This document shows, one piece after another, positions 839 through 25,222 of a stretch of 64,000 nt of DNA. The notes below the pieces were generated by a model, which saw nothing but the letters and a program-made list of their open reading frames with translations, was not told where the DNA came from and ran no database searches. Each line of letters starts with the position of its first letter. Positions within the stretch are counted from its first letter, which is position 1. A program made the position numbers and the translations under genes. This stretch comes from Candidatus Aenigmatarchaeota archaeon (lineage in GTDB: Archaea; Aenigmatarchaeota; Aenigmatarchaeia; PWEA01): positions 53,425-117,424 of the forward strand of contig JBKHHD010000002.1 in the NCBI GenBank assembly GCA_046539325.1, given 5' to 3'.

Positions 839-2481
839 CTCACTCTGAATTACTTTACGCTGTTAAGGCGTGCCGGCGTAGTTGAGCCTTGGACGTTCTG
901 ACGTCCAGCGATGACCAAAATTCCAGGCACGAACAAATGATGAGGAAGGGAGTTCAATCTCTTCTGATGTAGGAAACCCGAGAATGAAACCGAGAGGTTT
1001 CAGTAGCCAAATGTAGTTGGTGTGACGCGAGGACTAGTTTACTCTCTTACCAATTCCGGTTGATCCTGCCGGAGGCTACCGCTATCGGGATTCGATTTAG
1101 CCATGCGAGCCGAGGGTGGTTTATCCGCCCGGCGGACTGCTCAGTAACACGTAGTCAACCTCCCCTCAGGACGAGTATAACCCCGGGAAACTGGGACTAA
1201 TACTCGATAGGAAAGGGATACTGGAATGTTCCCTTTCTGAAATGTTCCGACGCCTGAGGATGGGACTGCGGTGGATTAGGTCGTTGGGGGTGTAACGGAC
1301 CTCCAAGCCTATAATCCATACGGGCGTTGAGAGACGGAGCCCGGAGACGGACTCTGAGACACGAGTCCGGGCCCTACGGGGCGCAGCAGGCACGAAACTT
1401 TTACAATGCGTGAAAGCGCGATAAAGGGATCCCGAGCGCCTTGGCATTGCCAAGGCTTTTTTGGAGTGTAAAAAGCTCCACGAATAAGGGGTGGGAAAAA
1501 CGGGTGCCAGCCGCCGCGGTAATACCCGTGCCCCAAGTGGTGACCACGATTATTGGGCCTAAAGCGTCCGTAGCCGGCCGGATGGGTCCTCAGTGAAATC
1601 CTGCGCTAAAACGTAGGACTTGCCGGGGAAACTATTCGGCTTGGGACCGGGAGAGGTCGGGGCTATTCCTGGGGTAGCGGTAAAATGCTGTAATCCCAGG
1701 AAGAGCGCCTGTGGCGAAAGCGCCCGGCTGGAACGGCTCCGACGGTGAGGGACGAAAGCCAGGGTAGCGAAGGGGATTAGATACCCCCGTAGTCCAGGCC
1801 GTTAACGATGCCCGTTTGGTGTAGCATCTCCTACGTGGAGGCGCTGTGCCGTAGCGTAGGTGTTAAGCGGGCCGCCTGGGGAGTACGTCCGCAAGGATGA
1901 AACTTAAGGGAATTGGCGGGGAAGCACCACAAGCGGTGGAGGCTGCGGTTTAATTGGATTCAACGCCAGGAACGTTACCAGCGCTGACAGCATGATGACG
2001 GTCCGCTTGAAGAGCGTACCTGAAGCGCTGAGAGGTGTTGCATGGCCATCGTCAGCTCGTACTGTGAAGCGTCCGGTTAAGTCCGGTAACGAGCAAGACC
2101 CACATCCCTAGTTGCTATCGTGTCCTTCGGGACGCGAGCACTCTAGGGAGACCGCCTCCGACAAGGGGGAGGAAGGTGTGGGCGACGGTAGGTCTGTATG
2201 GCCCGAATGCGCTGGGCTACACGCGGCCTACAATGGTCGGGGCAGCGGGTTGCGACTCCGAGAGGAGGAGCTAATCCCAAAACCCGGCCTTAGTTCGAAT
2301 CGAGGGCTGAAACCCGCCCTCGTGAAGCCGGAATCGCTAGTAAGCGAGGGTCACTATCTCTCGCTGAATACGTCCCTGCTTCTTACACACACCGCCCGTC
2401 AAGCCATCCGAGTGGAGCCTTGATGAGGCTTGGGAAATTTTCTCAGGTCTAATCAGGGCTCCGCAAGGAGGGCTAAGTCGT

Positions 2482-3295
2482 AAATTAATTGCGACCTCGG
2501 ACCGAAAGGTTCGAGAAAACCCGGCTGTATGCTGGAAACTCCACTCATACCAGGCTGCCGGAATTGTCCTAAGCTTTTTATCAAAAGCACGGGCAATGTA
2601 AGGTAGAGAGGTCTGGTCGTTGTGGACAATCAGCAGGGAAGCTCACTACTCTGACCTGAAAAGGTGAGGTATAGCCCCTCAGAGACTGCACGCCGGCCCC
2701 TAACGGAGCTGATTGGATGTCACAAAGCTACCTCAAGGGAATACTTCACGATGCCACGGAAAGGAAGTACACCTACCGAATTTCACAAAAGAACAAAGAT
2801 TTCATTGAAAAGCTGGCCGAAATGATTCGAGATCTGGGCAAAAAAGCCTGGATTTAAGAAGAAGGCAACCGAGGAATATACGTAGTGGAATTTAGTAAGA
2901 GTGGTCTCAAAAAGCAAGAAATCGAAACAAGACAAGAAAAAAGAGACTATATCCGTGGCTACTTCGACGCTGAAGGAAGCGTTCCAAGGAGTCCTGAAGT
3001 GCGACCTTACATTTACTTCGCACAACAGGACAAAAAAGACCTAAAGAAAGTGAAGAAATTCATTGAGGAGTTTTAAATTGAAACAGGCAAACTCCACAGA
3101 CCCAGTAAGGAGTCTGATCCAGATTACTGGAGATTTTACATCTCCACAAAGGATCACAAAAAATTTGCCAGAGAAATAGGCTCTTGGCATCCAAAGAAAA
3201 ATCAGCTGCTGAGGGAGATGAGACAGTCCACGCCTCGATGCGAGTCGGGGTGACACTTTCAAAGTGTCCGAACACCATTATGGTGTGAGCATGTG
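2482..3295 (+). mobile_element. Group I intron in 16S rRNA at E. coli position 1498 (814 nt)
   Basis: Splits AAGTCGT|AACAAGG; P1 GTCGT/GCGAC with U-G wobble; terminal G; P3 CCGGC/GCCGG, P4 TGCTG/CAGCA, P7 GACTG/CAGTC. Confidence 0.93.
2717..3253 (+). pseudogene. Decayed LAGLIDADG homing endonuclease in intron P8 loop
   Basis: One frame with YLKGILHDAT and YIRGYFDAEGS motifs, broken by TAA at 2855 and 3074. Confidence 0.85.
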
Positions 3296-3336
<41 letters not shown>

Positions 3337-23207: not shown

Positions 23208-23597
23208 ATGACAGGATATCCGGTTCAGGTTGAGGAAGAAGACGTGAAGGCAGCAGGCATAGATCTCAGGATTTCAAGAAAGAAGGCACATAAAATCTGC
23301 AAGGAAATAAACAACAAGAAGATGAAGCTGAACAGAGCAAAGGAGTTCGCCGAGAACCTCGTCGAAGGCGACGAGAATATAGGAGGTAAAACGTACAAGA
23401 AAGCTGCGGAAGGCGTACTTGAGGTACTGAACAACGCAGAAAACAACGCAGAGTTCAAGGGAATTGACACTGGAAAGCTGAGAATCAAAACAATAACAGC
23501 AGAACCCGGAAGCACGCTCCGAAGAATGAGAAGGAGAAGGGATTTTGGAAACAGGTTAAAAACAGCTAACGTAAAAGTCGTACTTGAGAGAGGATAA
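23208..23597 (+). CDS. rpl22: Ribosomal protein uL22 (short form)
   Basis: LRISRKK, LNNAENNAEFKG; position. Confidence 0.92.
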   Translation: MTGYPVQVEEEDVKAAGIDLRISRKKAHKICKEINNKKMKLNRAKEFAENLVEGDENIGGKTYKKAAEGVLEVLNNAENNAEFKGIDTGKLRIKTITAEPGSTLRRMRRRRDFGNRLKTANVKVVLERG

Positions 23598-23598
23598 A

Positions 23599-24429
23599 AT
23601 GACACTTGAAAGAGAGTTTATCAAGAAAGGCATAAACAAGAACCAGCTGGAGGACTTTTTTGAAAGAGAGTACCCGAGAGCTGGCTACACAGGCTGTGAT
23701 ATTAAAAGAACACCTATGGGAGTTAAGATAACGATATATGCCGATAAGCCTGGTCTTATAATCGGCAGAGGTGGCGGAAGAATCGACGAGATCACAGAAA
23801 AGCTAGAGGAAGACTTCGGCTTTGAGGACCCGCAGATAGATGTAGATGAAATCGAGAAGCCTGAACTCGACGCGAAAATAATGGCAAAGGAGATAAAAAA
23901 CGCTATCGAGAACGGCGCCAGCTACAAGAGAGTTGCTGGAGGAGTTTTAAGAAGTATAATGAACAGAGGGGCTGCCGGAGCTGAGATAAAGATATCCGGC
24001 AAGCTTTCAGGAGCAAGAGGAAGGACGGAAAGGTTCCAGGATGGATATATGAAAAGCTGTGGTGAACCTGCGAAAAGACTTGTGGACAAGGCTGTGATGC
24101 ATGCAAAGACCAAGCCCGGTACAATAGGAGTAAAGGTAAAGATAATGGAAGAGAAGCCGGACGAAGGGCTGAAGGACGTGGAAGAGGAGACGGAAGAAGA
24201 GGAGAAAGAAGAGGAGACGGAAGAAGAGTTTGACCTTACAGAGGAAAAGGTAAATGAAATAATTGACTCATCGATTTCAGGGGCAAAGGACAAGATAAGG
24301 GAAATTGAAGACGAACTGGACCTCGAGGACTATAAGAAGATACTCGATTACGAAATGGACGACAAGAAGAGGAAGGGCATGATGAAGTTCCTGAAGAAAA
24401 AAGTGGATGAATTCAGCGAGGAGGAATAA
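23599..24429 (+). CDS. rps3: Ribosomal protein uS3 with acidic C-terminal extension
   Basis: PGLIIGRGG KH motif, GTIGVKVKI. Confidence 0.97.
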   Translation: MTLEREFIKKGINKNQLEDFFEREYPRAGYTGCDIKRTPMGVKITIYADKPGLIIGRGGGRIDEITEKLEEDFGFEDPQIDVDEIEKPELDAKIMAKEIKNAIENGASYKRVAGGVLRSIMNRGAAGAEIKISGKLSGARGRTERFQDGYMKSCGEPAKRLVDKAVMHAKTKPGTIGVKVKIMEEKPDEGLKDVEEETEEEEKEEETEEEFDLTEEKVNEIIDSSISGAKDKIREIEDELDLEDYKKILDYEMDDKKRKGMMKFLKKKVDEFSEEE

Positions 24430-24430
24430 T

Positions 24431-24625
24431 ATGGCGATACTGACTACGGAAGAAATGGAAGATATGAGCAAGGATAACCTGGAGGAAAGGCTTGACGAGC
24501 TTCAGCTGGAGCTCGCAAAGGAAAAGGCACAGGTCAAAATAGGCGGTGTACCGGAAAATCCAGGTAAGATGAACGAGATGAAAAGGACCATAGCAAGGAT
24601 AAAAACAAAACTTTCCGAGATGTGA
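24431..24625 (+). CDS. rpl29: Ribosomal protein uL29
   Basis: ENPGKM..MKRTIARIKT. Confidence 0.95.
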   Translation: MAILTTEEMEDMSKDNLEERLDELQLELAKEKAQVKIGGVPENPGKMNEMKRTIARIKTKLSEM

Positions 24626-24636
24626 GGTGAAAATAA

Positions 24637-24942
24637 ATCGCTAACTGTCCCGACTGTGGTATGCCGGAGGAACTCTGTGTCTGCGATACCATAGCAAAGG
24701 AAGAGGAAAAGATAGAGGTTCGCAAGACAAGGAGGAGCTACGGAAAGGAACTCACCATAGTAGAAAACGTTTCGGAAGATATGAACCCTGAGGAACTCGC
24801 AAAGAAGTTAAAGAAAAACCTTGCGTGTGGCGGAACTTATAAGGAAGGTAGGATAGAACTACAGGGCGACCACCTACGGAGGATAAAGGACATCCTCATC
24901 GAGGAGGGCTTCCCTGAAGGCAAGATAGAAATAAAGAACTGA
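24637..24942 (+). CDS. sui1: Translation initiation factor aIF1 (SUI1), probable ATC start
   Basis: LACGGT, IELQGDH; N-terminal CPDCG lies upstream of the first ATG. Confidence 0.92.
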   Translation: MANCPDCGMPEELCVCDTIAKEEEKIEVRKTRRSYGKELTIVENVSEDMNPEELAKKLKKNLACGGTYKEGRIELQGDHLRRIKDILIEEGFPEGKIEIKN

Positions 24943-24943
24943 T

Positions 24944-25222
24944 ATGAGAAAGGTCGAAAACCTCCCCAGGCACGAGCTGATCGGTCTGGAGATGGAGGTA
25001 GTTGAAAGCGAGAATACGTCGGAGGAGGGCATACACGGGAAGGTGGTGGACGAACACAAAAGTGTTTTAAAAGTTGAGTGCGAAGGTGATGAGAAAACCT
25101 TGAGGAAAAGGGGACGCGTGTTTAAGTTCGAGCTCCCTTCAGGAAAAAAGTGCAAGATCGAAGGTGAACTCCTGGAAGGACGTCCCGAGGAAAGAATAAA
25201 GAAAAAATTGAGGAAATGGTGA
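24944..25222 (+). CDS. rnp1: RNase P protein component 1 (Rpp29)
   Basis: HELIGL, GKVVDE, GRPEERIK. Confidence 0.93.
   Translation: MRKVENLPRHELIGLEMEVVESENTSEEGIHGKVVDEHKSVLKVECEGDEKTLRKRGRVFKFELPSGKKCKIEGELLEGRPEERIKKKLRKW

Follow-up and report, generated by a model that had tools for sequence, protein, structure and literature searches.

The window analysed here, a 64,000-nucleotide stretch of the genome of a Candidatus Aenigmatarchaeota archaeon (715 kb in 10 contigs, 91% complete), contains a ribosomal-protein operon in which the gene encoding the initiation factor aIF1 lies between those for L29 and an RNase P subunit (Table 1). The Rpp29-type name of the latter was read from the order of the operon. 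In the ORF list, which was made from canonical starts, aIF1 appears only as a 93-aa protein beginning at the first ATG. From 24637 the letters of the window read ATC GCT AAC TGT CCC GAC TGT GGT ATG, and translation of 24637-24942 gives IANCPDCGMPEELCVCD..., a frame with no internal stop. The first-pass annotation had proposed that aIF1 starts at this ATC, behind a Shine-Dalgarno (SD) sequence, a 6-nt spacer and an in-frame TAA, and every element of that arrangement was found in place.

Table 1. Features of the aIF1 locus and of its presumed rRNA partner (positions in the window)
Feature	Position	Strand	Remark
16S rRNA 3' end, GGATCACCTCC	3326..3336	+	Anti-SD partner; the genome's own 16S
Ribosomal-protein operon: S3, L29, aIF1, RNase P subunit gene, S17, L14, L24	within window		From the ORF list
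L29 gene	24431..24625	+	ATG 24431; stop TGA 24623-24625 overlaps the aIF1 SD
SD, GAGGTGA	24624..24630	+	7-nt complementarity to the 3' end of 16S rRNA
Further in-frame stop, TGA	24628-24630	+	Upstream of ATC, inside the SD region
Spacer, AAATAA	24631-24636	+	6 nt, between SD and ATC
In-frame stop, TAA	24634..24636	+	Directly 5' of ATC
Near-cognate ATC, very probable start codon	24637..24639	+	Third-position mismatch to the CAU anticodon
aIF1/SUI1 coding sequence	24637..24942	+	101 codons plus stop
Zinc knuckle, C4-x2-C7-G-M-P-x3-C14-V-C16	24646..24684	+	From the translation
First canonical ATG (Met9)	24661..24663	+	Where the public 93-aa call begins
RNase P protein subunit (Rpp29-type) gene	24944..25222	+	ATG start; control neighbour

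Two further proteins of the operon carry acidic tails: that of S3 (23584-24429) is about 80 residues long, and that of L24 (25944-26468) is a long C-terminal extension ending in a C2H2-like motif (CEICGDTFDSKQGLNVHKGKAH).

The aIF1 product scored 75 bits with the PF01253 profile (cut-off 25.5), to which it is the single match in this genome, and 122.3 bits with NCBIfam NF002096 (cut-off 98), which carries a YciH name in NCBIfam; residues 3-99 aligned with positions 4-101 of this 102-position model. In the PDB it matched aIF1 of M. jannaschii (4mo0_A, E 5.7e-28, residues 4-100 on 5-102 of the chain) and, second, 5zcy_A (E 5.7e-21). A zinc-knuckle motif is present, from which zinc binding is predicted, and its cysteines (C4, C7, C14 and C16) are all invariant in our alignment A1. 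The parts of PMC6237735 available to us give the archaeal aIF1 knuckle as CX2CGLPX3C(phi)C, found in 64% of 744 sequences. The leucine of GLP is replaced by methionine here; among seven congeners this residue is Leu in five, while G003 has Met and G002 has Gln.

The knuckle region varies elsewhere in the class. In family f28 (L226, L228, L229, L238, L240, L242 and L246) an extra N-terminal CPKCG pair precedes the usual knuckle, giving the six-cysteine pattern M-A-V-CPKCG-x7-CSKCGLP..., and in several genomes of family f29 aIF1 has no knuckle at all.

Translation of aIF1 very probably initiates at AUC 24637, as had been proposed: the codon is conserved in independently assembled relatives, its distance from the SD is conventional and orthologues from other orders have their ATG at the aligned position. 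In all eight genomes of the genus the site reads ATC GCT AAC TG(T/C) and is preceded by (G)AGGTG(A/G). Across the order a near-cognate codon (ATC in 17, ATT in one and ATA in four) stands at SD spacing in every one of the 22 genomes examined. The starts (ATC)-A-N-C and (ATC)-T-E-I-C align with M-A-D-T-C and M-T-E-I-C of ATG-starting orthologues, the first cysteine being residue 4 here and residue 5 in M. jannaschii aIF1 (4mo0).

It is hardly credible that the protein begins instead at ATG 24661, or that ATC is an error of the assembly. The public gene call is indeed the 93-aa form, which still scores 113.4 bits on NF002096, but this form would lose C4 and C7, the first of the two cysteine pairs of the knuckle, as the first-pass annotation had noted. 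In addition, the Met9 codon is replaced by one for Leu or Gln (CTA, CTG, TTG or CAG) in six of seven congeners, and on our reading nothing resembling an SD consensus lies at a usable distance 5' of this ATG. The ATC itself is not an assembly error. The letters at 24637-24639, for which confirmation in the reads had been proposed, are identical across the site in contigs from three public sequencing runs, all belonging to one study (two of which are possibly the source assembly, while the third spans 24300-24718 at depth 2), and the remaining seven assemblies of the genus have ATC as well.

In 18 of the 22 order genomes there is no ATG, GTG or TTG between the preceding stop and the first cysteine. 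The first canonical codon in these 18 falls at residue 9-11 in four and at residue 22-60 in 14. In the remaining four genomes an ATG (three) or GTG (one) stands directly before the first cysteine, without an SD match at usable spacing, and is not kept in sister genomes. In most relatives, no canonical start would spare the zinc knuckle or the SUI1 domain.

Starts further upstream were considered and rejected. An upstream in-frame start, or a fusion formed by read-through from L29, is excluded because an in-frame TAA precedes ATC. A fusion of L29 to aIF1, whether by read-through or frameshifting, is also at odds with the difference in frame between the two genes and with the stops at 24628 (TGA) and 24634 (TAA), both ahead of ATC; the phase and distance of aIF1 relative to L29 differ among relatives. 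The GTG at 24627, inside the SD, opens a mini-ORF of only five codons that is not kept as such in relatives.

The 16S rRNA of this genome ends in GGATCACCTCC, so that GAGGUGA can form a 7-nt pairing with it. A spacer of 6 nt, as found before ATC, is normal for this genome since its ATG sites lie 4 to 7 nt after GGTGA (50, 25, 17 and 12 sites over that range, 104 in total). A 6- to 9-nt SD match at an aligned spacing of 6 was found in 19 of the 22 order genomes; the exceptions are L011, with a 5-nt match, and L020 and L022, with none of 4 nt or more. When SD length was taken as the longest uninterrupted stretch agreeing with the SD consensus at a usable distance, medians were 7 nt for aIF1 genes starting with ATH (n = 31), 6 nt for CTG (n = 22) and 4 nt for ATG (n = 46). 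The SD is thus longer at near-cognate starts (one-sided Mann-Whitney P = 3.5e-8, a value overstated because the relatives are not independent). The predicted RNA fold of 24595-24700 was no different from that of shuffled sequences (z = -1.31).

The 16S rRNA gene (1053-3336) has an insertion of about 810 nt (2484-3295) near its 3' end, between AAGTCGTAA and CAAGGTAGCC, in all likelihood an rRNA intron. Within the insertion, a short ORF (2885-3076) encodes a GYFDAEGS motif, which we take to resemble those of LAGLIDADG homing endonucleases. The Rfam 16S match stops at 2526, and the true 3' end is at 3336.

Comparison with the class (Aenigmatarchaeota) shows that near-cognate starts on aIF1 extend well beyond this order. 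Of 371 genomes, 349 had an aIF1 match; start regions were taken for 170, drawn from the best matches listed together with the whole of families f28 and f29 and a second order, and 163 were resolved. Sampling in this set is thin or absent for families f12, f13, f14, f18 and f36. The seven loci outside the 163 are L073 and L080 (ambiguous), L271 (no knuckle), L253, L254, L259 and L260. Near-cognate starts account for 56 of the 163 and canonical starts for 107 (98 ATG, six GTG and three TTG). While all 22 genomes of this order have AUH, the 40 sampled from the eight families of the second order have 25 CTG, four ATA, seven ATG, three GTG and one TTG. Family f7 (17 sampled) has five ATA, ten canonical and two ambiguous starts. 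Elsewhere in the class 91 genomes were sampled, of which 86 were resolved, every one with a canonical start. For two of the CTG starts there is no alternative, because a TAG stop directly precedes them.

No near-cognate aIF1 start was seen among 50 loci titled as other archaea, which come from the best 80 loci of a species-level genome collection (42 ATG, five TTG, two GTG and one unassigned). In four loci (L143, L158, L176 and L181, titled Methanomethylicia or Nitrososphaerota) aIF1 has a TTG start behind AGGTGA. TTG is canonical but weak, and such starts may represent the same theme in a milder form. An archaeal-type aIF1 with a zinc knuckle also occurs in L120, a record bearing the name of the bacterium Colwellia polaris; this MAG is probably mislabelled or contaminated.

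A tree of 68 genomes was built from six concatenated operon proteins, including L29 and with the start codon excluded (673 columns, quick IQ-TREE). The two orders form separate clades in it, with SH-aLRT support of 99 for this order and 98 for the second, and the observed codons require at least 15 codon changes and at least seven switches between near-cognate and canonical. As AUC and CUG are two positions apart, separate departures from AUG would be the simplest history. In the second order 11 of 40 starts are canonical (ATG, GTG or TTG) and are nested among CTG lineages; therefore a weak start can be given up. Within this order the third base has changed at least four times and never to G, an outcome expected by chance about one time in five.

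The start codons might simply have drifted in small, reduced genomes, the near-cognate codon being a tolerated defect. The genomes are indeed small (0.6-1 Mb) and the identity of the start codon does differ between lineages, but such decay is a very improbable explanation. Not one of the 22 order genomes has reverted across a deep divergence in which aIF1 identity falls to 58%, the SD is longer at near-cognate starts, and all the near-cognate codons seen differ from ATG by one base, either the first or the third. The genes around aIF1 keep ATG. Control starts were scored in the 22 loci if they fell no more than two codons from the aligned position: S3 had ATG in 22, the Rpp29-type gene had ATG in 21 and TTG in one, and L14 and L24 had ATG in all 19 loci in which each was found. 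In this genome aIF1A also starts with ATG.

A genome-wide scan for near-cognate codons preceded by an SD, each opening a long frame that lacks a nearby canonical start, left three credible genes: aIF1 (ATC), a gene for an NYN-domain protein (ATT) and a gene for a membrane repeat protein (ATT). Most of the scan's candidates were noise. The apparent ATA start of enolase was rejected, as translation places the real start at the ATG of MSKIKNV..., and an ATT start for an ABC transporter and antisense ORFs were dismissed on their translations.

The NYN-domain gene (L192:255-758, + strand, equivalent to G000:C1:47354-47857) has its ATT 4 nt after AGAGGTGA. This ATT is present in all eight genomes of the genus, and an ATG lies near that place in one genome of another family. 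If the first canonical codon were the start, the conserved FVDxQN motif would be cut. The membrane protein (L193:51-575, - strand, equivalent to G000:C6:3100-3624) has three YYLWK..SGH repeats, no NCBIfam family match and an ATT after GAGGTGA; ATT or ATA occupies the same place in the four genus genomes compared (five matches). In this lineage, then, translation does start at AUH, but on few genes, and among the three genes aIF1 is by far the most deeply conserved in its use of a near-cognate start.

Since two unrelated genes keep ATT or ATA, a weak start is not unique to aIF1 and could merely set low expression. The near-cognate codon would then fix a low rate of aIF1 synthesis compared with the ribosomal proteins transcribed alongside it, whatever the level of aIF1. 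The position of the gene inside a ribosomal-protein operon agrees with this, as do the two other genes, whose retained ATT or ATA is what would be expected of weak starts that lower output. However, the long SD at near-cognate aIF1 starts would raise output rather than lower it, and the RNase P subunit gene, for which we assume demand to be low as well, keeps ATG. Moreover, in the accessible text of PMC4705826 aIF1 is reported to reject AUU in vitro, and because of this an AUH start on its own gene would bring some feedback automatically. A fixed low rate without sensing is thus unlikely, though it deserves more weight than the other alternatives.

Ribosomes terminating on L29 might instead restart at AUC, with a relaxed codon requirement. 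In this genome the SD begins within the L29 stop, leaving 11 nt between that stop and ATC, and an L29-type ORF lies 5' of aIF1 in all readable loci of the order (L014 is masked), the upstream ORFs of relatives sharing the C-terminal L29 motif TIARIKT. Against such coupling, the distance from the L29 stop to ATH varies widely, with an overlap in L019 at one extreme and about 45-53 nt in L013, L016, L017 and L023 at the other, and both ATH and SD are retained throughout this variation. The SD is kept at canonical spacing, as in de novo initiation, and reinitiation is accordingly quite improbable.

The first-pass annotation had gone on to suggest that aIF1, as the archaeal factor for start fidelity, controls its own synthesis, and this feedback is the reading we favour, with some reservation. 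In such a model GAGGUGA, 6 nt upstream, would anchor the 30S subunit at AUC 24637, where the ordinary initiator tRNA would pair through its CAU anticodon with a third-position mismatch. The initiator tRNA of this genome has a CAU anticodon, A1:U72 and GGG/CCC in the anticodon stem; the A1:U72 pair and the GGG/CCC anticodon-stem pairs are hallmarks of initiator tRNAs. Because this tRNA is ordinary, AUC must be read by mismatch, and the protein would presumably begin with Met. As aIF1 would destabilize near-cognate initiation complexes, a high level of the factor would suppress translation of its own mRNA and a low level would permit it, giving a negative feedback that may couple the amount of aIF1 to the number of ribosomes.

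The repression step has a biochemical counterpart. According to the portions of PMC4705826 and PMC6237735 at hand, Sulfolobus aIF1 in vitro allows the 30S complex to accept an AUG mRNA and not an AUU mRNA. If the aIF1 of this lineage rejects AUU likewise, repression of its own AUH-initiated mRNA would follow. Feedback is made more plausible by this selective block of AUU and not AUG (PMC4705826, same portions), by the conservation and repetition of near-cognate starts specifically on aIF1 and by the longer SD matches at these starts. It is tempered by the two other genes of the genus that keep ATT or ATA, by the returns to ATG, GTG or TTG inside the second order and by the canonical starts of about two thirds of the resolved class genomes. 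A search for aIF2-beta (PF01873), which matched four archaeal controls, found none in this 91% complete genome.

It is quite possible, though we put it forward tentatively, that selection in Archaea has repeatedly given the proofreader's own gene a near-cognate start, reached separately as AUH in one Aenigmatarchaeota order, as CUG in another and as AUA in a further family. The feedback loop of eIF1 could then be of archaeal ancestry, and the nuclease-like NYN-domain gene and the membrane protein gene, both with AUH starts, may form a small regulon that reports the availability of aIF1. If the feedback itself operates, autoregulation through start stringency would be common to Bacteria (IF3), Eukarya (eIF1) and Archaea.

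There are also consequences for annotation. The public call for aIF1, an essential protein, is 93 aa long and has lost half of the knuckle because gene callers are limited to ATG, GTG and TTG. In relatives such callers would drop 20 to 60 residues or the whole aIF1 gene, and truncated calls distort alignments and marker-gene sets for DPANN archaea.

A full-text literature search found no report of a non-AUG start on an aIF1 gene, and no mention of one was found in the parts of PMC6237735 and PMC4705826 that could be consulted. The same start-codon logic is known from other domains. Section 22 of PMC4705826 and the title of its reference 25, among the portions available, refer to autoregulation of infC through AUU and of eIF1 through poor context, and the eIF1 feedback loop is discussed in the available portions of PMC6237735.

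Compared with aIF1 proteins already characterized (M. jannaschii 4mo0, P. abyssi and S. solfataricus), the protein described here is alike in family, length and zinc knuckle. It differs in its start, since orthologues of other lineages mostly begin with ATG (42 of the 50 loci titled as other archaea).

For bacterial infC, which encodes IF3, Butler et al. are said to have described in 1987 both the AUU start and translational autorepression. The resemblance is close in that the gene for a fidelity factor starts at AUH behind an SD, so that proofreading by its own product can repress it, and a few other genes share the odd start; in E. coli, pcnB is another gene with a start like that of infC. 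The defining feature of the infC type, a conserved non-canonical start on the factor's own gene, is found here in all 22 genomes of the order and in 56 of the 163 resolved for the class. However, IF3 and aIF1 are unrelated proteins, autorepression is experimental for infC and a prediction for aIF1, and the codon on aIF1 varies by lineage (AUC, AUU, AUA or CUG).

Eukaryotic eIF1 is a homologue of aIF1 in the SUI1 family and follows the same logic of a suboptimal start site; its negative autoregulation through an AUG in poor Kozak context was reportedly established by Ivanov et al. in 2010. In eIF1 the signal is the sequence surrounding a true AUG, which a scanning complex reads, whereas in aIF1 the codon itself is non-AUG and the SD context is strong (a 7-nt match at optimal spacing). 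The aIF1 start may therefore work like that of eIF1, even though the cis-signal is not the same. Judged from the genomes compared, a conserved near-cognate start on the gene for the archaeal start-fidelity factor is real, and with it an arrangement of the infC and eIF1 type.
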